Source: a virus. Taken from it: a stretch of DNA of 64,000 bases. Positions 11,118 through 45,200 of this stretch are shown piece by piece (within the stretch, counting starts at the first letter, position 1; each line of letters starts with the position of its first letter). The stretch covers positions 1 to 64,000 of IMG/VR virus record IMGVR_UViG_3300010885_054390; one strand, 5' to 3'. The notes beneath the pieces are model-generated. The model made no database searches. It had not been told where the DNA came from and saw only the letters and a program-made list of their open reading frames with translations. Both the position numbers and the translations under genes were made by a program.

Positions 11118-11120
11118 GAC

Positions 11121-12881: not shown

Positions 12882-12956
12882 TAAAATTAGTATCTCAATA
12901 AAATTTGATTTGACAACAAAAAGAAAAACTAGAGAGTACGCAAAGTAAAAAAATGA

Positions 12957-21197: not shown

Positions 21198-21280
21198 GGG
21201 CAGATACCGAAGCGGTTAAACGGGGAAGACTGTAAATCTTCTGGCTTACGCCTTCAGTGGTTCGAATCCACTTCTGCCCA
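21198..21280 (+). tRNA. tRNA-Tyr(GUA)
   Basis: Acceptor GGGCAGA/TCTGCCC-A, anticodon arm GAAGA-CTGTAAA-TCTTC, long variable arm, T-arm AGTGG-TTCGAAT-CCACT; CCA not encoded. Confidence 0.95.
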
Positions 21281-23697: not shown

Positions 23698-24258
23698 TTA
23701 ACTGCCTTCGGCAGGCTTAACCGACGTTTCGATTGCTATCGAATCCCGAATCTGATTCGGATTCGACTTCAAATTGGGATTCGAAGCGAGGAAAGCGACA
23801 TTGATAATCGGACGATTATCACCTTTAACTTGCTGTGCTTCAATACCATAGACTGACTTCGCCACACTATGAACCTTGTTCATAGCGTTAAAAGTAGTGT
23901 CGACCTCTGAAACTGATACCATTGAACTCTGTTCAATAGCAACGAGGCCTCGGTCAACCTGTTTCTGCACCCTTTCAAGGTATCGTTTCTGTAAATTAGT
24001 AACATTGTCTTCGACAATCGACTGCTGTATTGCAATGGCTCTATTGGCTGTTTGCTCTAGTATTGCATCTCTCTCCTCGAACCATTTACCTCTTGATACC
24101 CAAGAGTTAATGGTTCCCAACTTGAGACCATACTTCTCTGCCAACTGATTGTTAGTGAGTCTAGTGGTCATGTAAGCAATCTTGACCTGCTCTTTAACGT
24201 TCTTCCCAACTCTATAACGTTTCCCGTTATTAGAGTTGCTCTGCTCTGTTAAGCTCAT
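23698..24258 (-). CDS. terS: Terminase small subunit (putative)
   Basis: HTH NNQLAEKYGLKLGTINSWVSRGKW, helical middle, C-terminal PIINVAFL; start at MSLTEQ behind TTGCTA-N16-TAGCAT. Confidence 0.7.
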   Translation of the reverse strand: MSLTEQSNSNNGKRYRVGKNVKEQVKIAYMTTRLTNNQLAEKYGLKLGTINSWVSRGKWFEERDAILEQTANRAIAIQQSIVEDNVTNLQKRYLERVQKQVDRGLVAIEQSSMVSVSEVDTTFNAMNKVHSVAKSVYGIEAQQVKGDNRPIINVAFLASNPNLKSNPNQIRDSIAIETSVKPAEGS

Positions 24259-24327
24259 CTTCAATCTATGCTACAAAGAGTTAGAACAATAGCAATACCG
24301 AAGCACGTTGAATCTTACGCGAGCCTT

Positions 24328-24508
24328 TTAATAGTGTATTGCATTGCAATACTCTATTAACCCTTGTCAACGAAGCACTTTCCTCTGTAGCAATTACCCC
24401 GTTTATATATGACTATTCAGATAGTCATATTTAAACGACTCTGAAAAGCGACGCCGTTTACCCTTGGATCCTTTAGATCCAAGGATAAACGAACAGAATC
24501 CTACAGAG
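24328..24508. repeat. Cluster of three long near-perfect inverted repeats
   Basis: 24328-24360, 24400-24437 and 24455-24491, each with 16-17 bp arms and one mismatch; outer stem CTCTGTAG/CTACAGAG. Confidence 0.85.
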
Positions 24509-24600
24509 AGGCGAACCTATGTCTGCACCAGCTTGCAAGCACCTAGTACGCAAAAAAGCGTACGTCATAGCGTACACATAACGCGACTTCTCACCTTCGG

Positions 24601-24630
24601 TGTCACCGCCGTTTAACCGACCTCAACCTA
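24601..24630 (+). promoter_or_regulatory. Early bipartite motif copy 1
   Basis: TGTCACCG-ccgtttaaccgac-CTCAACCTA. Confidence 0.75.
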
Positions 24631-24696
24631 TTTAGCGACATCGAAACTTGCCGTTGGCGAGATCGGCGTCGAACCCAAAAAAGGAAAATCAATAAC

Positions 24697-24795
24697 ATGA
24701 CAACATACGAACAAGCCTACACGGAACTCTGCGAACTCTTCGGAGTCGACAGCGACGAAACCCTTGCCATCAACCCCCCGTACCTAGTGGACTAG
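24697..24795 (+). CDS. 32-aa acidic peptide
   Basis: MTTYEQAYTELCELFGVDSDETLAINPPYLVD with aagga RBS; first ORF after motif 1. Confidence 0.5.
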   Translation: MTTYEQAYTELCELFGVDSDETLAINPPYLVD

Positions 24796-24820
24796 TCCAC
24801 TACACAAGGAGACCACCACG

Positions 24821-25129
24821 ATGAACCTACCCACCTACAGCGAAGCCGTAGCCACGGAGATCAGCACGCTCCGTAAGCGTTTGGAAGTGCTCGAGCAAAC
24901 CCTTTGCCTCCCTCCGAGGAAAGCCAAAAGCTCCCTCCCAAGCTGGCTGAATGACAAAGACCTCCGCTCCCACGAACAGAGGAGAGCCGAGTCCGTTCAC
25001 TCTGCGACGAAGCTCCGCATAGAGTCTGCCTACGTTGCCATCCTCGAAGGACGCTCGGCGTCACTCAAGGATTGTGCAAGGGAGCATCGAGTGAGTCGCT
25101 CAACCCTAAAAACTGCCTTCAAAAGCTGA
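24821..25129 (+). CDS. HTH-containing hypothetical protein
   Basis: aaggag RBS; C-terminal SLKDCAREHRVSRSTL. Confidence 0.6.
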   Translation: MNLPTYSEAVATEISTLRKRLEVLEQTLCLPPRKAKSSLPSWLNDKDLRSHEQRRAESVHSATKLRIESAYVAILEGRSASLKDCAREHRVSRSTLKTAFKS

Positions 25130-25148
25130 ACCAAAGGAGAACATACAC

Positions 25149-25244
25149 ATGACACCCGAAGCCCTCGACATCCTAGACACCATCGTAAGAGTAGCGATAC
25201 CCGTAGTCGTAACTGGCCTATTCGTAGCCTGCTTCCACAGGTGA
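25149..25244 (+). CDS. 31-aa single-TM peptide
   Basis: aaggag RBS; MTPEALDILDTIVRVAIPVVVTGLFVACFHR. Confidence 0.5.
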   Translation: MTPEALDILDTIVRVAIPVVVTGLFVACFHR

Positions 25245-25279
25245 AGAAAAGCCCGAAGCCTTCGACCACCCCATAGGGG

Positions 25280-25309
25280 TGTCACCGAAAGTTTAAACGG
25301 CTCAACCTA
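25280..25309 (+). promoter_or_regulatory. Early bipartite motif copy 2
   Basis: TGTCACCG-aaagtttaaacgg-CTCAACCTA, 6 nt before an ATG. Confidence 0.8.
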
Positions 25310-25315
25310 ATTACC

Positions 25316-25483
25316 ATGAACAACGAAACCGCAACCATCCTCGACGAACTCGAGCAACGAGTCTCTGATATGTATGTCAGCGACTTGTCTACTGGCGAGA
25401 ACAAAGGTGCATCACCCTTGGACTACGTCCGCTGGGCAATCGAGGAGATCGAAGCAAACCACCAACCCATCCTGAAAGGATAA
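25316..25483 (+). CDS. 55-aa acidic hypothetical protein
   Basis: MNNETATILDELEQRVSDMY...; below the ORF-track cutoff. Confidence 0.55.
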   Translation: MNNETATILDELEQRVSDMYVSDLSTGENKGASPLDYVRWAIEEIEANHQPILKG

Positions 25484-25490
25484 AAAAACC

Positions 25491-26078
25491 ATGAACAAAA
25501 CCCGCGAACAATGGCTACAGAAGGCAGTCGAAGCACTCGACTCGAAGCTCTTCAAGCCTAAAAACCTCTCGCTACCCAAACGCATCCGAGTATCCGTCGG
25601 ATGGCCAGGGGGGCGTGCAGACAGGAGCAAAGCTGTCGGTCAACACTGGAAGCCAACTGCCTCCTCTGACAACCACCACGAAATCTTCATCTCTCCGAAG
25701 ATCGCCTCGAACGGACTGGAAGTCCTGTCCACCTTGGCACATGAGCTTGTCCATGCACAAGTCTTCGCCGAGTACCCCGACGAAGGCCACGGGAAGAACT
25801 TTCGCCGAGTGGCCAACGCCATCGGCCTCGAAGGCGACCCGAAGGTGTGTGGTGCAGGTGAAAAGCTCCGCAACGGCTTACTCAAGGACTTCATCCTTCT
25901 CGAAGGCGATTTCCCCTCGGGAAGCATCGACTTCTCACAGCGGAAGAAGGACAGCACTCGTCTCATCAAGGCAGAGTGTAAGGCTTGCGGATTCGTAATC
26001 CGTACGTCCCGCAAGTGGATTGAGGACATCGGCCTGCCCATCTGCAAGTGTGGCGGAGATTTCCACGAACCCAAATAA
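25491..26078 (+). CDS. SprT-like zinc metalloprotease with C-terminal Zn ribbon
   Basis: TLAHELVHA...GHG.NF; CKACG...ICKCG. Confidence 0.75.
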   Translation: MNKTREQWLQKAVEALDSKLFKPKNLSLPKRIRVSVGWPGGRADRSKAVGQHWKPTASSDNHHEIFISPKIASNGLEVLSTLAHELVHAQVFAEYPDEGHGKNFRRVANAIGLEGDPKVCGAGEKLRNGLLKDFILLEGDFPSGSIDFSQRKKDSTRLIKAECKACGFVIRTSRKWIEDIGLPICKCGGDFHEPK

Positions 26079-26091
26079 CCACCCTAAAGGG

Positions 26092-26121
26092 TGTCACCGA
26101 AAGTTTAAACGACTCAACCTA
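26092..26121 (+). promoter_or_regulatory. Early bipartite motif copy 3
   Basis: TGTCACCG-aaagtttaaacga-CTCAACCTA. Confidence 0.8.
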
Positions 26122-26150
26122 ATTGGCCAACCGAAAGGAAAACAACGACC

Positions 26151-27239
26151 ATGAACCCATACAACCTCACACTCAACCAACTTCGCCAAGAATGTGCGAA
26201 GCGTGGCATCGGCTCCCCCAAATGGAGAGCCAACGCCATCGTCGACGAGCTCCGCTCTGCCCTGCAAACCGCAGATCGTGATACTGGCGACTACACACCC
26301 ACCCCAACCCCACAGGAGGACACACCATTGAAGACCGAAACCCCCACACCTACACCTAGCGGTGACGCATTGGCAAGCACACTGCTCCAAGCCCTGCTCC
26401 CTCACCTTCCACAGCAAGGCATCCAAGAGGCTCGAGTACGGCAAATCGTCGCCGAGATCATCGAAGCACGAAGCCCGAGGGAGGTTCGAGTTGAGCTCCC
26501 CTCTGGTGAGAAGGTTGACGTTGGAATTGTGCATCAATCGTTTAACCGCATCCTGCAAGCTGTCTCCGCAAACATCAGCGGTGGCATCCTGCTCGTCGGC
26601 GGTGCTGGTGCAGGGAAGACAACGACCTGCCACAAGGTGGCCGACGCCTTGAAGCTCCCCTTCCGCACCATCAGTGTGTGTAAGCAAACCACCCTCTCTC
26701 ACCTCGTCGGCTTTATCAACGTAAGCGGGGAGTATGTAAGCACACCCTTCCGTGAAGCCTACGAAAAAGGTGGAGTATTCCTCCTCGACGAGTTCGACGC
26801 TGGCAATGAGAACGTGGTGCTGGCTCTCAATTCAGCCCTTGCCAACGGCATCTGCGAGTTCCCCGACAAGCAGATCGAGCGACACAAGGACTTCCGTTGC
26901 CTTGCATCGGCCAACACCTACGGCACTGGTGCAACCCTGCAATTCGTCGGTAGGAATAAGCTCGACGGAGCAACCCTCGACCGCTTCGTGGTCATCGAGC
27001 ATGACTACGACTCGAAGCTCGAGATCGCCCTTTGCGGGAATGACAAGTGGGCAGAGCGTGTGGTGAGCATCCGCAAGTCCATCGACAAGCTGGGCATCCG
27101 CCACATCGTCAGCCCTCGGGCATCCATCAACGGAGCCAAGCTACTCGCCATCGGTTGGAAGCAGGCCGAGGTGGAGCAGGCGGTCATCTGGAAGGGCTTG
27201 GACAAGAGCGAGGTACAGCGAGTGCTGGCCACCCTCTAA
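26151..27239 (+). CDS. MoxR/CbbQ-like AAA+ ATPase
   Basis: GGAGAGKT, LLDEFD, SANTYG, LDGATLDRF, SPRASI. Confidence 0.88.
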   Translation: MNPYNLTLNQLRQECAKRGIGSPKWRANAIVDELRSALQTADRDTGDYTPTPTPQEDTPLKTETPTPTPSGDALASTLLQALLPHLPQQGIQEARVRQIVAEIIEARSPREVRVELPSGEKVDVGIVHQSFNRILQAVSANISGGILLVGGAGAGKTTTCHKVADALKLPFRTISVCKQTTLSHLVGFINVSGEYVSTPFREAYEKGGVFLLDEFDAGNENVVLALNSALANGICEFPDKQIERHKDFRCLASANTYGTGATLQFVGRNKLDGATLDRFVVIEHDYDSKLEIALCGNDKWAERVVSIRKSIDKLGIRHIVSPRASINGAKLLAIGWKQAEVEQAVIWKGLDKSEVQRVLATL

Positions 27240-27242
27240 AGA

Positions 27243-27272
27243 GGTCACCCATCCACAACCTACGTCAACCTA
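27243..27272 (+). promoter_or_regulatory. Early bipartite motif copy 4 (variant)
   Basis: GGTCACCC-atccacaacctac-GTCAACCTA; the downstream leader resembles that of copy 3. Confidence 0.6.
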
Positions 27273-27300
27273 ACTGCCAACCGAAAGGACAAACCTACCC

Positions 27301-28194
27301 ATGACAACCAAACGTTCCAACGCCTCGGACTCCTCCAAGGCAACACAAGTATTCCCGCTAACCTTCGAGAAGTTCCTCGAGATTGCGGGAGACCCCGACC
27401 CCGACCACAACAGCCGTTACAAGTCTGCGAACCAACAGCCCACGTCCAAGACATGGGCAGACGGAGTCGACTACTTCGAGAGCGTAAGGCGTCTCAAGAT
27501 CGGCTGGCCAGAGGGCGTGAAGAAAGCCCGTGAGTTAAGCTCGAAGCTCTATTCACGTTTAAACGCCGAGTACAGCTTCCAACGTGACATCAAGTTCGAC
27601 ACGACTGGTGACTGGTTCGACATCGGACGAGTGCTTGAAGGTGAGCCCGATTGCTGGGGTTCCGAGATCGAGCTTGACGACGAGTTCTCCAATGACAAGC
27701 GTGGGAAGATCGTTCGAGTGGCAGTGAATGTCGGGGCGTCCTGCTCCTATAGCTCGGAGCAAATCCTCCAACGGGGAGTGTATGCCCTCGCCATCGTCGA
27801 CCTACTCGAACGACTGGGCAAGAGCGTCGAGCTCACGGCCTCATGCAAGGTGGAGAAGAACGGCAAAATCTGGGGCTGGGAATTGCCCTTGAAGCAAGCG
27901 GGAGAAGAGCTCTCCCTTGACCGAGTGGCACACATCCTCGGTAGCCCTGCTGGCTTTCGCCGAAGCTGGTTCCGAGTCATCGAGCACACTGACTACCCCG
28001 ATTGCGGAAGCGGTCTCGGATGCCCTACAGACTGGACGGAGAGCGAGCTCAAGCAACGTCAGGTGGACATCTACATCGGAGCGTTGTTCTCGGGGAACAC
28101 CCCTTGGCAGGGCAAGACGGACACGAAGTTCATCATCGAGCAACTGGCCAAGGCGGGCATCAAGTTAGAGCGTGAGGAGGATGCGAAGGCATAA
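27301..28194 (+). CDS. VWA-like partner of the AAA+ ATPase
   Basis: DIGRVLEGEPDCW, degenerate MIDAS VNVGASCS, IVDLLERLGKSVE; adjacent to a MoxR-like ATPase. Confidence 0.65.
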   Translation: MTTKRSNASDSSKATQVFPLTFEKFLEIAGDPDPDHNSRYKSANQQPTSKTWADGVDYFESVRRLKIGWPEGVKKARELSSKLYSRLNAEYSFQRDIKFDTTGDWFDIGRVLEGEPDCWGSEIELDDEFSNDKRGKIVRVAVNVGASCSYSSEQILQRGVYALAIVDLLERLGKSVELTASCKVEKNGKIWGWELPLKQAGEELSLDRVAHILGSPAGFRRSWFRVIEHTDYPDCGSGLGCPTDWTESELKQRQVDIYIGALFSGNTPWQGKTDTKFIIEQLAKAGIKLEREEDAKA

Positions 28195-28212
28195 CGGATT
28201 TGGGCAGTGGGT

Positions 28213-28250
28213 ACTGGTGCTCGTGAGGTTCGAATCCTCACGGCATCGGT
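28213..28250 (+). ncRNA. tRNA T-loop minihelix
   Basis: ACTGGTGC-t-CGTGAGG-TTCGAAT-CCTCACG-GCATCGGT; intergenic; no D or anticodon arm. Confidence 0.45.
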
Positions 28251-28282
28251 TAAACGAAACACGAAACATAGGAGCACGAACA

Positions 28283-28552
28283 ATGAAAAGTTTTGCATCA
28301 TTCGAAAAACAATACAAGCCGACCAAGCGTACGCCGACAGCGGACGACCCTAGCGACGACATCCTCTTCGAAACCTACGGAGAGGACGAACAGCTAGTGC
28401 GGAGGACGAACCCGAAGCACGTTTGGACACTGCTCGACGGCGAGCACGAAACAATCATCTGTGCTGGTATGCACTTCTGCAACCGCATCAACTACCTCAT
28501 AACGGAGACCGCATGGGACGATAAAAACCTATGCTTCCGCTATGTCGACTAA
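28283..28552 (+). CDS. Conserved phage hypothetical protein
   Basis: FETYGED...HVWTLLDGE...G.H..NRI.Y.ITE motif; ggag RBS. Confidence 0.65.
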   Translation: MKSFASFEKQYKPTKRTPTADDPSDDILFETYGEDEQLVRRTNPKHVWTLLDGEHETIICAGMHFCNRINYLITETAWDDKNLCFRYVD

Positions 28553-28565
28553 AGGAGAACGAACA

Positions 28566-28775
28566 ATGGACAAATCAATCTACTCACTTGCGGACATTCA
28601 AAACATCTGCGACACCCACGAGTGGTCAGCACTCGTAAACATAGGCGGGGGACAAATAGAGGTGAGCGTTTACGACGATAGCGATGGCTTCGGCGTATTC
28701 ACCCCCACTGAAATCGATGCGGAGACGTACACCTTTAGGTTGTATGACTGCCCATCAAAAGGAGAAAACAAATGA
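28566..28775 (+). CDS. Hypothetical protein, paralog of 30026-30211
   Basis: aaggag RBS; shared IC....WSA and FG.F...TY.F.L.D. Confidence 0.6.
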   Translation: MDKSIYSLADIQNICDTHEWSALVNIGGGQIEVSVYDDSDGFGVFTPTEIDAETYTFRLYDCPSKGENK

Positions 28776-28930
28776 CACGAGGCGACACACTGCGAAAGAT
28801 TAGAAAGTTGACGTCATTCAAATCCGACATCGGGTTTGCAAACCTTGGACACGGAGAGGCAATCAGCCTCATCGAATGCGTCAACAAACTGGCTACACAA
28901 GCCCTACAGAAAGGAAAAAAGAAAAAATGA
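28772..28930 (+). CDS. 52-aa hypothetical protein
   Basis: aaggag RBS, ATGA overlaps at both ends; ends KGKKKK. Confidence 0.55.
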   Translation: MTRGDTLRKIRKLTSFKSDIGFANLGHGEAISLIECVNKLATQALQKGKKKK

Positions 28931-29321
28931 AACGAACCATTGAGATCGAAGACACCCTCGAGGAGCGGGTGGCGAATGCCATCGAAAGCGTACAAGACGA
29001 ACTCAAGTCCTACGTCGAACAGAATCCCGAGACTGAAGAGCTCCCATGTTTAAACAACGACTTGGACTACAGCGGTGCCATCCATGAGATCGTCGACGGA
29101 GCGGTGCCCATCTACACCTACGAGATCGAAACCACATGGTTCCTCCATGCAAGAGAGCTCGAGAGTGCCTACGAGAATGCGGGGCTCGGAGACAACCCCC
29201 GAGAGAACAACGGCATGAGTGCCATCTACTGCTACATCATGGAGCAAGTGCAGGAATGGTACCACAAACACGGCGAGGAATACTTCGAAAAGCTCCCGAA
29301 AGGAAAAAAGAAAAAATGAAA
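28909..29321 (+). repeat. Exact 24-bp direct repeat flanking the ocr-like gene
   Basis: GAAAGGAAAAAAGAAAAAATGAAA at 28909-28932 and 29298-29321. Confidence 0.85.
28927..29319 (+). CDS. Ocr-like (T7 gp0.3) anti-restriction DNA-mimic protein
   Basis: Acidic, 130 aa. AIHEIVDGAVPIYTYEI aligns with Ocr AIHMAADNAVPHYYADI; YENAGL with FEDSGL; YIMEQ with RIYEQ (Ocr sequence from memory). Confidence 0.7.
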   Translation: MKRTIEIEDTLEERVANAIESVQDELKSYVEQNPETEELPCLNNDLDYSGAIHEIVDGAVPIYTYEIETTWFLHARELESAYENAGLGDNPRENNGMSAIYCYIMEQVQEWYHKHGEEYFEKLPKGKKKK

Positions 29322-29474
29322 GACGCAACCCAAATCATCGAGGAGATCGAGGCACGACTCCTTGAGTACACAAACCTCGGCATCGATCATGCGAACGACC
29401 AGAACGCAGTGAACGAGCTCGAGAGTGCCGTAAACGAACTCCAACACCTACTCGAATGGATAAAACAAAAATGA
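29316..29474 (+). CDS. Hypothetical protein
   Basis: Start at the ATGA overlap (MKDATQ). Confidence 0.55.
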   Translation: MKDATQIIEEIEARLLEYTNLGIDHANDQNAVNELESAVNELQHLLEWIKQK

Positions 29475-29689
29475 ATACTATCACGAAATCTGTTCAAGCG
29501 TACATCGACCACCGCATCGGAGAAATTAACCGAGAGGTGGCCACGAAGCACGAAGAAGCGAAGCGTTCACAAGGTGAGCAACTCGGCTACATCCTCGGAT
29601 GGATAGGCGATTGCCAAGCGAGACGCAGTGAATTGCACGCCGTACAGAGCTTCCTCCGAAAACTAAACCCTAACCAAGAAAGCGTTTAA
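29471..29689 (+). CDS. Hypothetical protein
   Basis: ATGA overlap; helical. Confidence 0.55.
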   Translation: MNTITKSVQAYIDHRIGEINREVATKHEEAKRSQGEQLGYILGWIGDCQARRSELHAVQSFLRKLNPNQESV

Positions 29690-29694
29690 CCACT

Positions 29695-30033
29695 ATGGCT
29701 AATGCTAAAACATACAAACTGATGGACGGAGAGAAACGGAATCAGGCGAACCCTGACACCTTCTCCATCCCCGAACTCAACGAACGAAACAACCTAGCCC
29801 TCGACGAGTGCTATGCGAAGCTCGGCTTCGTCATGCCACGGCGAAAAAATAGGGTATCCGCAGAAAGAATGTGGGTACGAGTGAAGACGAAAGATGCGAA
29901 GGGCACCTACACTGGTGAGCTTGCCAACGAGCCAGCCTTCGTACCAAATCTATTTTTCGGAACGCCCGTCCGCTTCAAGGCGAAGCACGTACTCGACATT
30001 CAGATGGTGAAAGAGGAGGACAGCGATGAATAA
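29695..30033 (+). CDS. DUF2314-like protein
   Basis: ERMWVRV...YTGELANEP motif. Confidence 0.6.
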   Translation: MANAKTYKLMDGEKRNQANPDTFSIPELNERNNLALDECYAKLGFVMPRRKNRVSAERMWVRVKTKDAKGTYTGELANEPAFVPNLFFGTPVRFKAKHVLDIQMVKEEDSDE

Positions 30034-30211
30034 GACCTACACTGACGAACAAGTAAACGCGATCTGCGAGGAGTGGGGATGGAGTGCCTGCGAATGCTCG
30101 AACGAATACGAGAACAGCATTCAAGTATGCACCCATCGTCACGACGACTACTTCGGCAGATTCAATAAAATCACTGACGGAACCTACAACTTCGAACTAA
30201 AGGACGTTTAA
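30026..30211 (+). CDS. Hypothetical protein, paralog of 28566-28775
   Basis: ggagg RBS; shared residues with the paralog. Confidence 0.6.
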   Translation: MNKTYTDEQVNAICEEWGWSACECSNEYENSIQVCTHRHDDYFGRFNKITDGTYNFELKDV

Positions 30212-30213
30212 CC

Positions 30214-30399
30214 ATGAACAAACCAGTCAACAGATACCTCATCGACTTGGTAAAGTTTACCGAGCGACTTCGGGAACTGCGGGACAGCGATGCGAACCCT
30301 TGTAACGAGGAGAACGCAGAGGGCTTGTGCCCCTGCCACACCTTCGACCAAGCCATCGATCAACTCGAGAACGTGCAAAGCATTCTCAAAACTCTGTAA
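30214..30399 (+). CDS. Small Cys-containing hypothetical protein
   Basis: PC...CPCH motif. Confidence 0.5.
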   Translation: MNKPVNRYLIDLVKFTERLRELRDSDANPCNEENAEGLCPCHTFDQAIDQLENVQSILKTL

Positions 30400-30411
30400 A
30401 AAAAATCACCT

Positions 30412-30645
30412 ATGATGATATACACACAGGGAAACGCAAAGACTTCGGACGGAACACCAGCCTCCGTGCTTACTCGCCCCAAGCCACACGGCTTCGGCAT
30501 ACCACCCGAGCATTTGGCCAAGGCCGACCGCTATGTGGTGCTGGTAACAGACATCCGCGACCGCGAACCTCCGCATTCACTATGTGAGCTGTACGAGGCC
30601 GAAGCGTTTAAACCTTATTACTCGGAACGCATCGATCAACACTAA
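30412..30645 (+). CDS. Hypothetical protein
   Basis: Contiguous ORF. Confidence 0.5.
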   Translation: MMIYTQGNAKTSDGTPASVLTRPKPHGFGIPPEHLAKADRYVVLVTDIRDREPPHSLCELYEAEAFKPYYSERIDQH

Positions 30646-30694
30646 CAACTTTTCGTGGGACAAGACGTTGCAAATCAACGCAAAACCCCCCGAA

Positions 30695-30724
30695 TGTCAC
30701 CGAAACTAAACACACCTCAACCTA
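30695..30724 (+). promoter_or_regulatory. Early bipartite motif copy 5
   Basis: TGTCACCG-aaactaaacacac-CTCAACCTA, 10 nt before an ATG. Confidence 0.8.
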
Positions 30725-30734
30725 AAGGACAACC

Positions 30735-31241
30735 ATGAGCAACAACGAAAAACCAAACAACGACGAAACAAACGAAGCACAGAGACAAGCACGCCTCGAG
30801 GAGATCGGGAAGTGCATCACCGACTTCGTGAACGATGACCGCACTCCCGCCATACTCAAGTGGGGCTTACAGATTCTCTTCATCGCTACGTCCGATGACG
30901 ACACGAAGAGCGGAGTAGTAGGCGGTTTGCTGGCCTGCGGGCACAGAGCCTTCGACAACGCAATCTCCAAATCGCGAGAGGAGGGCAACGAAGCCTTGGC
31001 CAAGAAGCTCGAGAAAGATAAGAACGACATGATTAAGCTCGCCCTTCAAGTCGACTTCCGTGGTGCGGTAACCTCCGTACTGCGAACGAAGCTGGGCGAG
31101 ATTGCAGACGATGGCGAGGAGGCCGAGGAGGCACCCTCCCCGAAGGTGATAGTAGTCGAGCAAAAGAAACCAGTATCGGAGGACAACGTACTGCTACCCA
31201 AGCAGAAGAAGGAACCAAATCCCTTTGCAGGGAGGAACTAA
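30735..31241 (+). CDS. Hypothetical protein
   Basis: aagga RBS directly after motif 5. Confidence 0.65.
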   Translation: MSNNEKPNNDETNEAQRQARLEEIGKCITDFVNDDRTPAILKWGLQILFIATSDDDTKSGVVGGLLACGHRAFDNAISKSREEGNEALAKKLEKDKNDMIKLALQVDFRGAVTSVLRTKLGEIADDGEEAEEAPSPKVIVVEQKKPVSEDNVLLPKQKKEPNPFAGRN

Positions 31242-31242
31242 C

Positions 31243-31458
31243 ATGAGATTACAGACAAAAGAACAAATCCAAGACTGGCTCAAGAGCTACAAGAAGAACG
31301 ATTCATTTGCGATTCTCTTTTGGACAAAGGACGAGATAGAAGAAAACCTTGGACGTAAGATCAAGGAGACGGAGTGGAAAAGAGCGGTCAATGCCGTTGA
31401 CTCCGACAGCGAAGAGCAGGTGCTCGGGGAAAACATCGAAGAGCACTTGAGCGTCTAA
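31243..31458 (+). CDS. Hypothetical protein
   Basis: ggagg RBS. Confidence 0.55.
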   Translation: MRLQTKEQIQDWLKSYKKNDSFAILFWTKDEIEENLGRKIKETEWKRAVNAVDSDSEEQVLGENIEEHLSV

Positions 31459-31570
31459 CGAGATGACGAGTGGGCAGACATCATTTGCGATGGCTGAAAA
31501 GGTTGGTTGCGATGTAACCTCCGCAATCAATCGTTCCCTACTTGTCGTTTAACCGAGAGGAAACACTAAC

Positions 31571-31747
31571 ATGAAGTACATTGTATTTGCCGAGAACACG
31601 ACCTACTACTCGATGGAGGTAGAGGCCAATAGTGCGGATGAAGCAAACAAGATTGCCGAGCAGAGCGACGGAGCCGACTGGACGGAAGACTCCACAGGCA
31701 AATGGATTGTAAGCGACGAGCTCACTTGTAGGAAACCAAACAACTAG
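31571..31747 (+). CDS. 58-aa acidic protein (VEANSADEA motif)
   Basis: gagg RBS; motif similar to 34799-34996; below the track cutoff. Confidence 0.55.
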   Translation: MKYIVFAENTTYYSMEVEANSADEANKIAEQSDGADWTEDSTGKWIVSDELTCRKPNN

Positions 31748-31760
31748 GAAAATAAAAACT

Positions 31761-31970
31761 ATGCAAATTATACGCAAATCACCAGTCAGTCTCAAAATCC
31801 AATCGATGCACCTCGACATCAGCGAGCTTCAATGGACTCGGTACCTGCGAGGAGATGGTTTGATTCAAGATATATTTCCAAACTTAACCGCCGATGAGCG
31901 GGAGTTTATTAAATCAGGCATAACCAACGAGGAGTGGAAAATCCTCTTTGAACCAACGGAGGAAAGTTAA
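31761..31970 (+). CDS. Conserved phage hypothetical protein
   Basis: LIQDIFPNLTADEREFIKSGIT.EEW motif. Confidence 0.65.
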   Translation: MQIIRKSPVSLKIQSMHLDISELQWTRYLRGDGLIQDIFPNLTADEREFIKSGITNEEWKILFEPTEES

Positions 31971-31971
31971 A

Positions 31972-32172
31972 ATGATATTCGAACGTGGAGAATATAAAGG
32001 CAACCCAACACTAATCATCAAGCGAGACGAGCGGGACAGATTTCCCTTTAGTCTCGGACTACGGAAGGCGGAGATGCTCCTCCAAACAGAGGTGCAAAAC
32101 CAACTCGAGAAGTTTGTGCTTGAACACAAGGTTGACGATGGGCTTGAGAACAATGATGGCGAACACGCATGA
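31972..32172 (+). CDS. Conserved hypothetical protein
   Basis: EYKGNPTLII...FSLGLRKA; ggagg RBS. Confidence 0.6.
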   Translation: MIFERGEYKGNPTLIIKRDERDRFPFSLGLRKAEMLLQTEVQNQLEKFVLEHKVDDGLENNDGEHA

Positions 32173-32390
32173 GTAGCCTCATAAACAAGCGGATGTTCAA
32201 GACGTACTTGCTTTCGCTATCGAAGGTAAATGCGGACAAACGCAACGAGGCTCGAAGGGAGATGGGGATACTTGCCAACCTAAAGCCCCACTCCCGAGTC
32301 TCAAAGGAAACCTACGACAACGCAACCGCCCATCTAATCAACTGGATGAAGGCACACATCATCGAAAAGAAAAAAGGAAAAACATTATGA
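32169..32390 (+). CDS. Small basic hypothetical protein
   Basis: ATGA overlaps at both ends. Confidence 0.55.
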   Translation: MSSLINKRMFKTYLLSLSKVNADKRNEARREMGILANLKPHSRVSKETYDNATAHLINWMKAHIIEKKKGKTL

Positions 32391-32953
32391 ATAAAACACC
32401 TACAACCGAATCACGAAAGCACAAGGGCATATCACCCGACCAAAAGAAAGCCATCGAAACCTACGAAAAACTTTGTTCGGAGAAAGACAAGGGCGAACTC
32501 TCCTTCGAAACCTCCAACAAAGCAAGAGAGTTTCTATACAAGTACAACCAAGAATGCTTGTTTAAACACTTCCGCAAGATCAAGGCCAAGCAGGCCGAGA
32601 TAACCTTCGATGGCTCGGGAGACAGCGGGCAGATCGAAAGCTCCTCCATCGATGGGAAGCACTTCATCAAGAACTCCAAGAAAAGCGGGATTGTAGAGGG
32701 CTTTATTAGCCACACTTGCACCACCTTTCTTGAAGAAGGTGGACTGCAACACGGATGGAATACAAAGGTATGCCTTTACGAAGCCATCGAAGACTACTGC
32801 TACAACATCCTTGAGAGCGAACACGGAGGCTGGGAGATCAACGCAGGTTCCTTTGGAGAGTTTGTTCTCGACGCCCGAGGAGATGAACTTGTAACAAAGC
32901 TCACCATGAACGAACGCTACGAAGACGTAACAACTTCGGAGGAGACCTACTAA
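32387..32953 (+). CDS. DUF6878-like protein
   Basis: FDGSGDSGQIE...GWEINAGSFG.F. Confidence 0.65.
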   Translation: MNKTPTTESRKHKGISPDQKKAIETYEKLCSEKDKGELSFETSNKAREFLYKYNQECLFKHFRKIKAKQAEITFDGSGDSGQIESSSIDGKHFIKNSKKSGIVEGFISHTCTTFLEEGGLQHGWNTKVCLYEAIEDYCYNILESEHGGWEINAGSFGEFVLDARGDELVTKLTMNERYEDVTTSEETY

Positions 32954-33378
32954 TGGCCAATCCCTACCACCACGCAGTAAGCTCCGCAAAGAAGTGGGGC
33001 GGGAAGCCCGAGGACTACCAGAAAATCCACGACTGGTTTGACGAATCAAAGATGATGATGGCGGACTTCCGACATCGTGCCTTGCGTCACCACGCCGAGG
33101 GATGCTTCATGGCGGAACGAATCTTCGGGAACACCATCACCAACAGCGATGGACGGAAGGTTCCGACTCGGTGGGTAGCCGAGCAACACGTCAAGGAAGA
33201 CCTTGGGCGTATCCCTTCTATGCAAGACTGGTTTGTGCACATATCAGCCAAGCCTTGGATGGGGGCTACGCAGAAGCTGGACGCCGAAAAGATTGGCTCG
33301 GGCGTTCCGCATAGCTTAATCGGGCATACCTTTGTATGCCTACCACCAACAAAAAAAGGAAGAGGGAAAAGAAAATGA
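32953..33378 (+). CDS. DUF6915-like His-rich protein
   Basis: NPYHHAVSSAKKWGG..EDY..IHDWFDESK...HRALRHH.EG...AEQHV.EDLG.IPS. Confidence 0.7.
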   Translation: MANPYHHAVSSAKKWGGKPEDYQKIHDWFDESKMMMADFRHRALRHHAEGCFMAERIFGNTITNSDGRKVPTRWVAEQHVKEDLGRIPSMQDWFVHISAKPWMGATQKLDAEKIGSGVPHSLIGHTFVCLPPTKKGRGKRK

Positions 33379-33833
33379 ACATCAAAACATTCTTAAATAA
33401 ACATCTATCGAAGAGACTCAAGGCCGAGTGCAACCGCTTGGGCGAACGTTACCGCAAGCTGGAAGCCAAGGACGAAGAAACGGGCTCTGACTCTTTCCAC
33501 GGCTCCGATGAGCCAAGCGAAATCAGAGATCGGATTATCAATATGATGGCTCCTTCGGTTAAACGCTACGCCAAAAACCTGTTCAACAATCCAGTCGACA
33601 AGGACGAAGATAGCTTTGAGTTCTTTGACTCCTTGGGCAATGACCAGCTAGAAGTCTTCTGCATCAGGCGTGGCAAAAAAGGATGGGTGGCAAGCGTTTC
33701 AACTAACTACTGGGACGCCCCCGCAGATACCTGCGACGACTCCACCTGCGTGCCTACACCAGCGGAAGCCTTCGAGTGGGGCTTTGGCGACGCAATGGCT
33801 TACCACTTCATCAACGAGAAAGTAGGAAGATAA
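33375..33833 (+). CDS. Hypothetical protein
   Basis: Start at the ATGA overlap. Confidence 0.55.
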   Translation: MNIKTFLNKHLSKRLKAECNRLGERYRKLEAKDEETGSDSFHGSDEPSEIRDRIINMMAPSVKRYAKNLFNNPVDKDEDSFEFFDSLGNDQLEVFCIRRGKKGWVASVSTNYWDAPADTCDDSTCVPTPAEAFEWGFGDAMAYHFINEKVGR

Positions 33834-33836
33834 TAT

Positions 33837-34094
33837 ATGAGCAAAACATTACTTGGCCGAGAGTTTAAAAACATCCCGACTGGCGACCTAGTCAAGCTAG
33901 TGCATGACAAGCATCAGGAGCTTAACAAGTACCCGAACAGCACCCGCATTCGAATGGAGTTTAACTTCTCAACGCAAGAGCTGTGGAAGCGAGGCTGGAA
34001 ACTCGAATACGTTACGACCCTTAAACTGCACCCGCCCCGCAAGGAACGCAGCGAAAGGTTTGTGACGTTTAAACAAAAGGAGGCCGTGGCATGA
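33837..34094 (+). CDS. Hypothetical protein
   Basis: Contiguous ORF. Confidence 0.55.
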   Translation: MSKTLLGREFKNIPTGDLVKLVHDKHQELNKYPNSTRIRMEFNFSTQELWKRGWKLEYVTTLKLHPPRKERSERFVTFKQKEAVA

Positions 34095-34492
34095 ACAGCA
34101 AAGACTTCAACCTAAAGTTTCGAAAGGAAATCCAGACCCTCAACTTCGTATACCGAAGCACGTTCTTTGTTCACTGGTTCCTTCGCAGGTTCATCTTCGA
34201 AGGCGTCTTCGCGGGGAACGCTGACTTTAACGGCAACTCCGTAAGCGTAATCAGCGTGCCCGTTTTAAGGTTTTTCCTAGCCGACCTCGAGCGTCTTGTC
34301 ATAAACTTGCACGACGAGATAGCTCGCATGAACAACTCACTCCCAAAGAAAATGCGTATACCTTTGAAGCTCCCCATCTACGAGAGCTACGCCAAGCTCA
34401 AGGCAAAGTCCGAGGCGAAGGCACGGCGGAACTCCAAAGTTTTAGTATCGTTTAACCATGAGACCAGCGACGGAACAGGCATGAATGACTGA
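34091..34492 (+). CDS. Hypothetical protein
   Basis: ggagg RBS, ATGA overlap. Confidence 0.55.
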   Translation: MNSKDFNLKFRKEIQTLNFVYRSTFFVHWFLRRFIFEGVFAGNADFNGNSVSVISVPVLRFFLADLERLVINLHDEIARMNNSLPKKMRIPLKLPIYESYAKLKAKSEAKARRNSKVLVSFNHETSDGTGMND

Positions 34493-34754
34493 CCTCGAAC
34501 CTATCCCCTCGAGAAAGAGATGCCCCTCCTGCCAGCAGGAAACACTGGAAGGCGGAATAATAGACGACTACGTTGCCAACATCCGAGGCTTTGAGATCGT
34601 AATCCGAAACATAGAAAGAGACCGATGCTCTAACTGCGGGGAGCAGTGCTACGCTTGGAGCCAATGCCTCAAGATCGACCAAGCAATCAGAGACGCTAGG
34701 AAAGCGGGGGTACGGCACGACATCGGGCTGTACGACTTTCGTTTGGACGACTAA
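34485..34754 (+). CDS. YgiT/MqsA-type zinc finger protein
   Basis: CPSC...IVIRNI...CSNCGE. Confidence 0.65.
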   Translation: MTDLEPIPSRKRCPSCQQETLEGGIIDDYVANIRGFEIVIRNIERDRCSNCGEQCYAWSQCLKIDQAIRDARKAGVRHDIGLYDFRLDD

Positions 34755-34798
34755 AAATAATCGTTGTCCTTTGCAGAATACGTGATAGTAATCGATTC

Positions 34799-34996
34799 AT
34801 GGCACAGCACAAACACTACGAAGTAAGGGTTCCTCGGAGCCACGTTGAAGTCCACAAGGTTGTGGCGGAAGACGAAGCACACGCCAAGCGTTGTGTGCTG
34901 AACGGCGAGTCGCAAGACGTAAACGTTGAGCTTGCCCCCTACAAGTCCGCCGACGAAACCAGCACCTCCGATTGGTCAGTATCCGAAGTATTGTGA
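34799..34996 (+). CDS. Small acidic hypothetical protein
   Basis: VVAEDEAHA motif; promoter-like TTGTCC-N16-TAGTAA-N7-ATG. Confidence 0.55.
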   Translation: MAQHKHYEVRVPRSHVEVHKVVAEDEAHAKRCVLNGESQDVNVELAPYKSADETSTSDWSVSEVL

Positions 34997-35234
34997 AGCA
35001 ACTTCGTTTGGAGTTCTGCGAAAGCCTAAAGTGCTGGGTTGTTAAAAACGGCAAGTGGCGTTTTGGGCACAGAGTATTTAGAGATAAAGCCAAAGCCGAA
35101 AAGTTTCTCAAAGAAATTACCCTTAAAAAATAACTCCGCTGCTGCGTTTAGACGCTGTTTCTTTGGCATCCCGAAACAAGTTTTGCTCAAAAATCAACCG
35201 CAAGTCTTTGTGTATCAATTTAAAACCCTCGAAA

Positions 35235-35264
35235 TGTCACCGAAACACGGGCGACCTCAACCTA
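35235..35264 (+). promoter_or_regulatory. Early bipartite motif copy 6
   Basis: TGTCACCG-aaacacgggcgac-CTCAACCTA, 6 nt before ATG 35271. Confidence 0.8.
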
Positions 35265-35270
35265 TGTGGC

Positions 35271-35555
35271 ATGGCAACCGAAGGTAAACTAAAGTCCGCA
35301 AGGCTCGCCGAGACCACCCGCTCTATGGCCAAGCTAATTCAACTCGCCCTAGTTCGCCTTGGGGCTGACCCCAGTGCCCTTGTCGCAAGAAAGACTGACC
35401 TTCGAGGCTCGAAGGGCGGGCTCACCTTCGGCGAGCTCATGTACTGGTTAGCCTTTTCAATAAATGCCCTCGAGTTTAAATGCAAAAAGATTTTACCAGC
35501 AAACGAAGCCATACAAAGAATCCAGAGATGGAAGAAAGTGAAAACAATACTATGA
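35271..35555 (+). CDS. Basic hypothetical protein
   Basis: Start re-called at MATEGK after motif 6. Confidence 0.55.
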   Translation: MATEGKLKSARLAETTRSMAKLIQLALVRLGADPSALVARKTDLRGSKGGLTFGELMYWLAFSINALEFKCKKILPANEAIQRIQRWKKVKTIL

Positions 35556-41984: not shown

Positions 41985-42204
41985 AGCAATCGAAGACGAG
42001 AATATCGTCGAAATACCCGAACAACTTTACGTATTCTTCCTTATGGAAAGGAAGTATCTTTTGGCTAACCTTGACGCCATGCAAAAAGTTATAGCCGCAG
42101 CCAAAAATTACAGCTCGGATGAGGTCGGGGAGTGTTGCTTTAAGGACTATATTCAGTCTTTAGATGAGCTTTACAAGTTTTATACCGAAGTCGGACTTCT
42201 CTAA
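41881..42204 (+). CDS. Hypothetical protein (start uncertain; overlaps the previous gene)
   Basis: The C-terminal part fills the gap up to the convergent giant gene. Confidence 0.4.
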   Translation: MKWSVLKQKLAKLSQIASQKANLENHEGSVKDLNKAIEDENIVEIPEQLYVFFLMERKYLLANLDAMQKVIAAAKNYSSDEVGECCFKDYIQSLDELYKFYTEVGLL

Positions 42205-45200
42205 TTCTTCTGCCTGCTTAGCTCTTCATTGTAAGCCTTGCTTACGCCCATAATAATCTCTTTTTGCCTGTCTTTTAGAGCTTTGATTTCGGCGGAGCGA
42301 TCATCGCCACCCTCCTCGGATTGCTTCTGAATAGCTTTGAGTTGTTGCTTAACCTTCTGAAGCTGGCCGCTAGCGCTTCTAACAATCGGATAAACGTTAA
42401 TTTCCGCAGCGTATTTTTCTGACGCTTTTTGCGCTCCTTCGGTATCGCCCCGTCCACCGAGTAGTTTCTGCTCTTCAATGGCAGTGTAGGCAGCCTGTCG
42501 AATTGCCGAAAATCTTTCGTAGTCAGCGTAGCTTGGTTGTTCGCCTACGAACCTGCGGAGGATCGGGATGTCGTTTAACCCAAGGCTCTCATTCGGATTG
42601 AGAATTTTCTCCGGTAGCGAAGCCACACGAAGGATGGTCGATCCAACTGCACCGGTCAGATAGCCCGCAAAGTAGTCCATATATTCTGGCGAGAACGACA
42701 AAGCTCCCTCGCGAACTTCATTGCCGCCGGAGATTTCGTTCATAAACTTTGTTAAGTGTTTAAACGCAGGAGTTACACTGTTGAAGTATTTCTCTGAAGC
42801 CGGCGTGGGTGAGGCGTCGCCGGGGAAGTCGGAGGGCGTGATTGGCCTGCCCGCCCAGTCTTGGTTTAAATAAATATCTGTCAAAGGCTGGAAAACTGTG
42901 GGCGTAAGTGATGATAGTAGGTTTCTAGCCCCGCCGATGGGGTTAAAGCTCTCCATAAGAGTTTCGGCCATTCGAACTGCCGTATTCCCGTTTGTCTTCT
43001 TACCTAGCACCAAGTCGGACAGAATGTTTCCAGTGTGCCAAAAAGTGTTGTACCCGTAAGGCAACGGGAGGGATACGTACCTTCCCTTGGTTCCGGGGAG
43101 CATAATAATGATGTTTGTACGCTTTTTAAACTCGGGAACCTTTGACCAAAAGCTTTCGCCATCCTCATCATCTCCACCCGAAGCCTCGTTAAACATACTG
43201 GCCAACAACCCAGAGGTCACCGCCCCAACTGCTAACTTCCGAACCTTCGGAGAGGTTGCCACCGACTGCACCAGTCTGGCCGAGCCCTGTAGGGAGGCAT
43301 TAAAGAACAAATAGATGCTGTTAAACACCGGCCCAGCCTCGCCCTTCTTCGTAAAGTTTACGGTAGCGTTTCTGGCAATCGCAGCGGCCTGCTGATCGGT
43401 GGCTCCCAATTCTCTTGCGTGATGAAAGACGGCTAAACGAGTGGCATTTTCTACGCCCCCGTTCATTTTTTCAATCCAATTAGATGATGCCTTTAGAAAC
43501 TTTTGAGCTGAGTTGGGGTCTTTCCCGTCCACAATCTTTTGAATGTCTTTTATCTGTGTTTCAATGTCCCCGGTAACCCATCCAATTAGCTTTCCGCCGG
43601 CCTTCAAGAAAGCTCTGTAGCTGTCGCCCCACTCATCTTGAGTAGAGTTGGGGTTAAATTCTTCCGCCAGCGAAGTCCGAAGCGGTTTTAGCGAAAGCAC
43701 TGACTTCACTACCCTACCGGATAAATCTTTATACTGTTCCGCAGATAAGTTGAAGGCTGCGGTCTGTAAGTCTCGGATCGGATTAGTAAAGAAGAACTCC
43801 GGGCTAAGGCCAGTCCGGGTAATTGAAAGCAAACGGTTAAACGTTGCCAAGGCCCCCACTACTTTGCTCGACCAATTCTCGCTATTGATGCCCCCGTTTT
43901 TAAGATTTCGAACAAGATCGGGGTTTTTAATCCGGATAAACTTGGTCTCCCCGTTAATTTTTGTAGCAAAAATATCGTCTTGGTTCATCCAAGTTGGGTC
44001 AATAAAGTCTCTGGCGTATTGGAAGGCCTCTCCTGATTCTGGATCTTTTCTGGTTACTAGCCTCCGAACTGTCTGGGGCTTCGCAATCTCCCATAGATCG
44101 CTGTCGGGGTATGCCTGCACCAACTCATAAAGGGCATTTCCGAGAACGTTCTTTTCCGCTCTGACGATACCCGCTGCGGCACTATTCATTGCATAGGCTA
44201 GAATATTTTCTGCCCTGCTCAGACGACCTAAGGTCGGCTTAACTTCTTCACCACGGATATTAAATCCTTTTCCAGTGGCTTGCCCGCTAGTAGCGATTTC
44301 TTCCGCCGTGGCTCCGGGGATTCCCTTTAGCGGAACATAATCTTTATACCTGTCGGTAAGAGCCTCGAATAAGGGTCGGGAGATCAATCCTTCGTCTAAA
44401 CGTTGTCGGAGGGCCCCGTCAATCATTTGCCGGATCATCTGGCGGGACTCCTCAAGCTGAGTGGCTCTATCGTCAGCCTTGTACTTGGCGATCAAATCGT
44501 CTGCCTCTGCGTCGGTCATTCCCGAGCCTCTTTCGTGAAGTTGTTCTATGTATTCTTTGTTCTTCTTGGCCTTGTTGTATTTGGCGAGCTCTTCTGGTGT
44601 TGCGTCCTCTCCGGGGAAATAGGGCTCTGGGGGCATGGGATTGATAAGTCGGATACGTGCGTTCCGCTCTTTCGCGTGCAGGGCGTACATAAACTCCTCA
44701 ATCTCGGCTGTCGAGATTCCCGAGCTCCTAAGCTTTTGAAGAATGGGCTCGACTATGTTTTCGTTGAAGTCAGTTAGGCGTGCTCCGACCTTTCCGTGGT
44801 AGAGCTCCTCAAGTTGATAGGCGTTTAAACTGTCTGGCAGCGGCTCGCCAATTTGTTTCTCAATGGATTCTTGGATCTTCTTTAAGTCAATAAACCTATC
44901 TTGCCAAAATCTTCTCAGGCCGAGGATTTTGTCTGCATTCGTCACATACTTCCCGAGAAGCTCTCTAGCAAATCTCGGCAAGAAAGGAACTTTGCTTTCG
45001 TCAAAGAACACTTTGTTTTCCGGTTGGTACTTGAATCCACCAATAGGGGCCGCGCCTAAAATGTCGGGCGAAGAAGTGAAGTCCGAGTTCAGTCCATTTG
45101 CGAGCTTTAGCTGGTCTGCATTGAAAACGACAAACCTTGAGTTCTGTGCTTTATCATCCGTATTGGCTTCTCCTAGTTCAATGGAGTCAAAGCCAAAACC

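Follow-up and report, generated by a model that had tools for sequence, protein, structure and literature searches.

A hairpin-flanked bipartite cassette as a candidate non-sigma-70 early promoter class private to an uncultivated freshwater phage lineage

Phage-specific promoters are known and normally come with a recognisable reader, either a phage sigma factor or a polymerase of T7 or N4 type, and immediate-early genes are known to be reached by two routes: host sigma-70 promoters, as in T7, T4 and lambda, and injected polymerases, as in N4, crAss-like phages and phiKZ. Here, we describe a repeated bipartite element of fixed spacing, TGTCACCG-N13-CTCAACCTA, which stands ahead of small genes of an uncultivated phage and is probably a transcription-initiation signal of some non-sigma-70 kind. 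It lies in a window of 64,000 nucleotides, bases 1-64000 of an 80,254-bp IMG/VR virus record (IMGVR_UViG_3300010885_054390) that is complete according to CheckV. Three described systems resemble it. The early promoters of N4 and other Schitoviridae, served by an injected virion RNA polymerase (vRNAP), contain small hairpins with a stem of 5-7 bp and a 3-nt loop, and several copies, all in one orientation, precede small early genes near an end of the genome (PMC4496689, PMC9163698, PMC13037366), as they do here. In the PeSL cassettes of T4-type phages, a stem-loop, a promoter and a Shine-Dalgarno sequence form units between small variable early genes, and gene cassettes are gained and lost between copies (PMC2839356, PMC4122927). 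Promoters of ECF41, a group of extracytoplasmic function (ECF) sigma factors, are bipartite with a fixed spacer and a TGTCAC -35 box, and have the published signature TGTCACA-n16(+/-1)-CGTC (PMC3426412).

A scan of the window with up to three mismatches returned exactly six sites, five of them without mismatch (24601, 25280, 26092, 30695 and 35235) and one with three (27243), compared with a chance expectation of 0.12 sites; the largest number in any shuffle was two, and none of 100 shuffles reached six. These are the very sites named in an earlier note made from the sequence alone, and a scan of the whole 80,254-bp genome with up to four mismatches added none. TGTCACCG is confined to the five exact copies, as is exact CTCAACCTA, and the motif forms both the largest direct-repeat family of the window and the sole repeated candidate signal of its small-gene block. 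All six lie on the + strand, in the direction of the genes, and each is intergenic once the open reading frame (ORF) at 35163-35555 is restarted at the in-frame ATG at 35271. The spacer between the boxes is exactly 13 nt in every copy, equivalent to 17 nt from GTCAC to CAACCTA. The strand, placement and spacing described in the earlier note were thus confirmed, along with its remark that an ATG follows three of the copies at a distance of 6-10 nt (25280, 6 nt; 30695, 10 nt; 35235, 6 nt); at the other sites, this distance is 66 nt (24601), 29 nt (26092) and 28 nt (27243). With their upstream flanks, the copies are arranged as follows.

24592-24630, + strand: copy 1, hairpin CACC-TTC-GGTG (24592-24602), TGTCACCG, 13 nt, CTCAACCTA
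25267-25309, + strand: copy 2, hairpin CACCCC-ATA-GGGGTG, then the motif
26080-26121, + strand: copy 3, hairpin CACCC-TAAA-GGGTG, then the motif
27233-27272, + strand: copy 4, the variant GGTCACCC...CGTCAACCTA, with hairpin CCTC-TAAA-GAGG
30661-30724, + strand: copy 5, no hairpin, an A-rich upstream block (30661-30694) and the motif
35201-35264, + strand: copy 6, no hairpin, the upstream block as in copy 5 and the motif

Copy 1 is the first signal of the + strand block, with its next ATG at 24697. The ATGs that follow copies 2 and 6 after 6 nt (25316 and 35271, respectively) have no Shine-Dalgarno sequence, and copy 5 is followed by AAGGA as a Shine-Dalgarno sequence ahead of the ATG at 30735. 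The hairpin of copy 3 begins immediately after the stop codon of a SprT-like gene, and a CobS-like AAA ATPase gene (ATG 26151) lies downstream; the hairpin loop of copy 4 contains the stop codon of this ATPase gene and precedes a DUF7192 gene (ATG 27301). The A-rich upstream block common to copies 5 and 6 is a 35-nt direct-repeat family (D8). As a separate observation, contigs from four independent freshwater metagenome runs break exactly within copies 2 and 3 (25284; 26096-26118); the near-identical 40-nt repeat is therefore real in natural populations, where it limits assembly. The 3' half of copy 3 (ACGACTCA-ACCTA-A, window 26107-26121) also aligns without gaps to the T7 promoter phi1.1A (ACGACTCA-CTATA-G; L145 2836-2849), whose final G is the start; the 8-mer is identical, and the remaining copies match less well. 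This likeness may be due to chance, the genome holding no T7-like polymerase.

The + strand block marked by the element (24.6-41 kb) comprises ~45 small genes, among them those for the SprT-like, CobS-like ATPase, DUF7192 and 3D-domain proteins, a methyltransferase and 2-oxoglutarate oxygenases, together with a weak Ocr-like match. The replication genes (helicase, exonuclease and family A DNA polymerase; 13.4-21 kb, + strand) are without the motif, and the structural genes occupy the - strand. Sigma-70-like matches are enriched neither at 22-41.9 kb (15, with 15.3 expected) nor at 1-20 kb (23, compared with 18.4 +/- 4.2), the latter count leaving unsupported the contrast that had been drawn with TTGACA-type promoters of the structural genes. 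No sigma-70-like site was called at any copy of the motif, and GTCAC and CAACCT match TTGACA and TATAAT poorly. The 'dedicated early promoter class' proposed in the earlier note appears to be the best reading available: the element has the marks of a dedicated, non-sigma-70 expression signal of the small-gene block, being found in one orientation, in intergenic positions and at syntenic places in relatives, whereas that it acts early is something we infer from gene content and position.

Relatives were located through the CobS-like ATPase encoded between copies 3 and 4, which led to metagenome contigs with 99% and ~80% identical proteins that are collinear with the window at 16-37 kb. The motif is unchanged in the 99% relatives. 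In the ~80% relatives, it is present at syntenic intergenic sites, with four copies in contig L005, six in L006 and nine in L007, all co-oriented with the genes and directly ahead of a Shine-Dalgarno sequence or an ATG. Throughout the 25 non-redundant copies from the window and the ~80% relatives, GTCAC and C-NN-CAACCTA are invariant (25/25), and the intervening 13-14 nt are free. Each genome has one spacing and one 3' box, namely 17 nt and CTCAACCTA in the window, 18 nt and CTTCAACCTA in L006, and 18 nt and CCGCAACCTA in L005 and L007, and GTCAC is followed by CG in the window and by G in the relatives. This concerted, lineage-specific change suggests that the reader and the phage evolve together, as in the promoters of phage-borne polymerases or sigma factors, and is hard to reconcile with a conserved host factor. 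Tentatively, we favor as a quite possible reader the core RNA polymerase of the host, guided by a specificity factor of phage origin, with the hairpin in an accessory role.

A megablast search of the region against known phages gave no match, the DNA polymerase is at most 30% identical to that of any known phage, and no close relatives by protein were found in IMG/VR. The exact motif had no match in IMG/VR, and the looser form TGTCAC-N13/14-C-NN-CAACCTA gave only single, chance-level matches among the matches listed. Two distant carriers of the ATPase, L010 and L011, lack the motif; L010, whose ATPase is 47% identical, has a repeated intergenic signal of its own, GTTAAC...ACATAACATCTAAGGTGGGAG, ahead of genes (9080-13180), which suggests that private promoter-like cassettes may be common around this gene set. 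The public runs that contain the phage are freshwater DNA metagenomes from 11 studies, with no RNA runs listed among them.

The earlier note had pointed to the use of TGTCAC-type -35 elements by some ECF sigma factors (ECF41). The -35 box is TGTCAC in five of the six window copies, and its seventh base is C in the window or G in the relatives, not A. Counted in the ECF41 manner, the window has TGTCACC, 16 nt and CAAC, and the relatives have 17 nt, both within 16 +/- 1. At the -10 position, by contrast, all 25 copies have CAAC, embedded in a conserved block of 7-12 nt, instead of CGTC or TGTT, and neither an ECF41 sigma factor nor a COE target gene is encoded in the genome. Moreover, these copies are in a phage, at six to nine per genome, with a hairpin abutting the -35 box. 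Thus, the -35 box and spacer geometry of the ECF41-type reading stand, whereas its -10 box and its sigma gene do not, and with two of four defining features failing, the link is no more than a resemblance. A sigma-54 reading (TGGCAC-N5-TTGC) was ruled out, as the GC box is not conserved.

These comparisons bear on the possibility that the element is a promoter for an alternative host sigma factor (for example, of ECF type) that is already present in the uninfected cell and is borrowed for early expression. Such borrowing would account for the geometry and the ECF41-like -35 box, would sit well with the lack of a complete sigma gene in the phage, and would allow early genes to be read before any phage protein is made. 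It is nevertheless improbable. All copies shift spacing and 3' box together between relatives that are ~20% diverged, which a phage-borne reader fits better, and the -10 position does not have the sequence that such a factor would lead one to expect. Recurrence of the motif in bacterial genomes was not borne out either: the exact form had 14 scattered single matches in 185,579 species genomes, mostly inside genes, unrelated to the present phage and with no regulon-like clustering. In addition, ECF sigma factors are usually kept in an inactive state and would be ill suited to immediate-early expression.

A second conserved component lies upstream of the boxes; neither it nor the A-rich block of copies 5 and 6 is described in the earlier note. 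Copies 1-4 overlap a perfect mini-hairpin that ends on the G of GTCAC, and such a hairpin is present in 22 of the 25 non-redundant copies, with a stem of 4-7 bp (most commonly 6 bp) and a loop of 3 nt (17 copies) or 4 nt (five copies); the three copies without one, including copies 5 and 6 of the window, keep both boxes intact. Stems include CACTAC/GTAGTG, CATTAC/GTAATG, CATTCC/GGAATG, CACCCC/GGGGTG and CACTCT/AGAGTG, and their bases are not conserved except for CA...TG at the base of the stem. Pairing was counted explicitly by imposing a 6-bp/3-nt structure on the ungapped alignment of the 25 copies: 80.7% of cells were paired, compared with 25-41% when the partner was slid, and 24 double-sided stem changes were observed compared with 10.5 in shuffles, a number reached in none of 500 shuffles. 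A comparable hairpin stands before only 4 of the ~309 other TCAC sites in the genome. Judged by this alignment, the hairpin is real and its stems co-vary. Because the first copy of each genome carries it despite the absence of a co-oriented gene upstream, the hairpin belongs to the element and is not merely a gene 3' end. RNAalifold gave no consensus structure on the ungapped alignment, in which the hairpins are out of register, and a search of the element against Rfam returned no family. A function as intrinsic terminators was ruled out, there being no T run on either strand except, weakly, at copy 3.

It is this hairpin that brings in the main rival to a sigma-type promoter, a mechanism in the style of N4. 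A hairpin extruded on the template strand would be bound by an unrecognised phage polymerase, probably delivered by the virion, and transcription would start at the conserved G that follows the stem by 4-5 nt (TCACC-G in the window and TCAC-G in the relatives); CAACCTA would then fall at about +17 to +24 of the early leaders and have another role. The similarities extend beyond the presence and placement of small hairpins. Twelve of the 22 loops are TTC or TCC closed by C:G, corresponding to GAA or GGA on the template strand, which is the loop class of N4 vRNAP promoters (PMC13037366). The coding strand of the N4 record reads GTTGC-TTC-GCAAC-ttat-G and GAAGC-TCC-GCTTC-tttt-G, and the commonest form here is CACTAC-TTC/TCC-GTAGTG-TCAC-G; the distance from loop centre to conserved G is 12 nt in the relatives and 13 nt in the window, compared with 11 nt in N4 and 13-14 nt in LUZ7, and predicted DNA hairpin stabilities are alike. 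A start at this G would retain every Shine-Dalgarno sequence in the transcript, the hairpin at each first copy would need no upstream gene, and both N4 and the present phage have the gene for a giant virion protein (~3,500-3,800 aa) in the late block.

We nonetheless regard an N4-style mechanism as possible but unlikely. The genome has no homologue of N4 vRNAP, N4 RNAPII, T7 RNA polymerase or the N4 replication proteins, and no other tested protein is shared with N4. The remaining 10 of the 22 loops differ (ATA, GTA, TTA, TAC, TAAA and TTTA occur) and neither loops nor stems are conserved in sequence, whereas N4-type enzymes read specific loop and stem bases. The hairpin-less copies retain their boxes perfectly. 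Finally, the most conserved part of the element, CAACCTA at its fixed distance 17-18 nt downstream, has no counterpart in N4 promoters and would be left unexplained.

The hairpins begin at or contain the upstream stop codon in copies 3 and 4 and in L005, L006 and L007, and the element is always directly ahead of a Shine-Dalgarno sequence or an ATG. Both features would suit an RNA-level element of polycistronic early transcripts, in which a 3' stabilising or processing hairpin is followed by a conserved leader that aids the next gene. This explanation has a low probability, slightly below that of a borrowed host sigma factor. A promoter for such a transcript is not seen, copy 1 lacks an upstream gene, and the ATG follows at anything from 6 to 66 nt, whereas the spacing between the boxes is invariant. 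Beyond the hairpin, there is no consensus RNA structure and no Rfam family, and the preference for GAA/GGA loops on the complementary strand suggests a DNA rather than an RNA hairpin.

Organisationally, the element stands nearest to the PeSL cassettes introduced above. In L007, a 72-aa ORF (9720-9938), missing from both the window and L006, is enclosed by two identical cassettes at 9680 and 9961 (region 9680-9990). The number of cassettes before the SprT-like and ATPase genes also varies among lineages, and the whole looks like PeSL-type cassette shuffling. The differences lie in the parts. PeSL promoters are strong and of sigma-70 type (TTGACA/TATAAT), with AT-rich sequence upstream, and termination by their GC-rich stem-loops is proven. 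The present boxes, by contrast, are not sigma-70-like, and the short hairpins are without a T run.

The same ORF, placed between identical copies like the linkers of T4-type phages, could argue for a role mainly as a recombination linker for cassette exchange. Alternatively, the element could be an operator or activator site, bound by a phage protein that has no part in positioning a polymerase, as a helix-turn-helix gene is divergent to copy 1. Of the explanations considered, this pair is the least probable. The element lacks symmetry, without exception faces the same way as the genes and is always placed at their starts; use as a linker is compatible with promoter function, and in PeSLs it is secondary to that function; and the helix-turn-helix protein looks more like a small terminase. 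The gene in question is as follows.

23698-24264, - strand: 188-aa gene with an N-terminal helix-turn-helix, matching small-terminase and DNA-binding PHROGs, divergent to copy 1

It lies 10 kb from the large terminase gene (11121-13130), on the strand opposite to its neighbors, and is 74-77% identical in relatives. Between this small-terminase-like gene and copy 1 is a palindrome-rich region of 340 nt (24328-24563), which contains a hairpin with an 18-bp stem (24454-24492), a 10-bp inverted repeat (ATATGACTAT-TCAG-ATAGTCATAT) and GTACGC-N6-GCGTAC with a third GCGTAC close by; possible identities are an operator cluster, a packaging site and the end of the genome that leads during entry. Elsewhere, at the end of the replication block, is a single tRNA-Tyr (GTA) gene (21198-21280).

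The search for a reader returned no recognisable phage polymerase. A six-frame search for T7/N4-type RNA polymerases (PF00940) gave no match, tblastn with T7 RNA polymerase, N4 vRNAP and N4 RNAPII gave only noise (E > 0.09), and no homologues of N4 replication proteins were found. Pfam and PHROGs searches of the large ORFs revealed nothing polymerase-like, and these ORFs contain no T7-like motif set. Sigma70_r2 had no match in the genome at E <= 1, although the same search was positive in 11 of 14 control genomes, and the sole Sigma70_r4_2 match is a 12-bit helix-turn-helix match in the small-terminase-like gene. Among the virion proteins is a 3,795-aa polyvalent protein (ORF 42201-53588, - strand). 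It carries LPD38, matches ART-PolyVal weakly and is similar over its C-terminal 900 residues to the giant proteins of Stx, Vibrio, Ralstonia and Burkholderia phages; its homologues (3,797-4,628 aa, in contigs of 57-81 kb) differ in their modules between relatives. An N4-type vRNAP identity for this ORF was ruled out by BLASTP (E 0.6) and by hhalign of its family profile against N4 mini-vRNAP (probability 0.2%), and the protein contains no DxDxD. Two features of the virion block were considered further.

50073-50384, - strand: candidate reader, a sigma-region-2-like segment by predicted fold, residues ~1069-1172 of the 3,795-aa protein
56560-59709, - strand: 1,049-aa virion-block protein with no family match and homologues only in this phage clade (44-97% identity)

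The 1,049-aa protein is predicted, with low confidence, to be beta-rich rather than polymerase-like, and Foldseek gave no significant match. For the segment of the giant protein, which lies in a module (49338-50480) with 47% to 99% identity among relatives, sequence methods found nothing. An AlphaFold2 model of the module from nine homologues has a predicted local distance difference test (pLDDT) score of 70-87 for its residues 31-125; Foldseek gave no match, but 10 of 50 structure-comparison rows are sigma factors or sigma-like subunits. Eight of these ten align region 2 to the same segment (SigH, SigE, AlgU, SigI6, region 2 of RpoS, pro-sigma-K and residues 183-266 of AR9 gp226 among them), and the other two (6dv9_F and 6pmj_F) are whole-model alignments with a root mean squared deviation of ~20 Å and carry no weight. 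Residues 184-264 of AR9 gp226 are the sigma-2-like domain according to the AR9 paper (PMC9209446). As a separate line, language-model features placed three Sigma70_r2 clusters at the top, with a score of 0.90. The C-terminal part of the module is an alpha/beta domain in the model (pLDDT 55-70) with no atlas match. An hhalign comparison of the giant-protein profile with E. coli RpoE (0.4%) aligned a different region to sigma 4.2 and was not used.

On the strength of the model, a sigma-region-2 fold is somewhat favored for this segment, and it is doubtful that the module has a role in reading the motif. Precedent for a sigma-2-like fold revealed by structure alone comes from AR9 gp226, phiKZ gp68 (PMC9209446) and the minimal sigma factor T4 gp55. 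Those are separate proteins made after infection that serve phage-encoded or late host polymerases, unlike the candidate module here, which would be one cassette of a giant virion protein and has a predicted fold only.

In the sigma-type promoter that we prefer, each copy would be a transcription-initiation cassette private to the phage lineage, made up of an accessory mini-hairpin (an A-rich upstream block in two copies), a -35-like GTCAC(C)G and a -10-like C..CAACCTA, at a distance fixed at 17 nt in this genome, with a Shine-Dalgarno sequence or start codon next. GTCAC would occupy approximately positions -34 to -30 and CAACCT positions -12 to -7, separated by 17-18 nt, a geometry shared with sigma-70-family promoters. 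In three genes that have no Shine-Dalgarno sequence, the ATG comes 7 nt after CAACCT, a spacing typical of a -10 hexamer and its start site, and their mRNAs would therefore be leaderless. A promoter of this kind would also explain the free spacer of fixed length, the intact boxes of the hairpin-less copies and the A-rich tract at the position of an UP element in copies 5 and 6. The reader would be the host multisubunit core RNA polymerase with a phage-supplied specificity factor, not host sigma-70, and each of the six cassettes would start an early transcription unit of its own, beginning from the probable leading end of the genome. The strongest candidate for this factor would be the giant virion protein's sigma-region-2-like module, which would enter together with the DNA. 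That this module, as a cassette of the cleavable 3,795-aa protein, captures the host core polymerase at DNA entry and directs it to hairpin-flanked GTCAC-N17-CAACCTA promoters is a speculative and rather unlikely extension.

Several points weigh against this interpretation. CAACCTA directly adjoins a GGAGG Shine-Dalgarno sequence in L005 and L007 (CAACCTAGGAGGCAACGATG), and a start 7 nt after CAACCT would exclude this well-placed sequence from the mRNA, the block's first gene included. The model assigns no necessary role to a hairpin that co-varies in 22 of 25 copies, including a first copy with no upstream gene to terminate. No sigma-4-like domain that would read the -35 box was found in the module, and that the giant protein is injected is itself a deduction from its family (polyvalent proteins, LPD38).

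The genome thus presents a very clean, co-evolving promoter-like cassette for which no reader can be named, and which unites features of two otherwise separate systems: the mini-hairpin of N4-type promoters and the bipartite boxes of ECF-type promoters. If it is read by an injected sigma-like module or by an unrecognised polymerase, it would represent a new early-transcription strategy; a virion-delivered sigma-like factor, in particular, would add a third immediate-early route to host sigma-70 promoters and injected polymerases, and the 45-nt cassette and its factor would constitute an orthogonal expression part. Even on an ordinary reading, the cassette would define the early transcription units of an abundant, uncultivated clade of freshwater phages, encountered in 11 metagenome studies, and would show PeSL-like cassette shuffling outside the T4 group.

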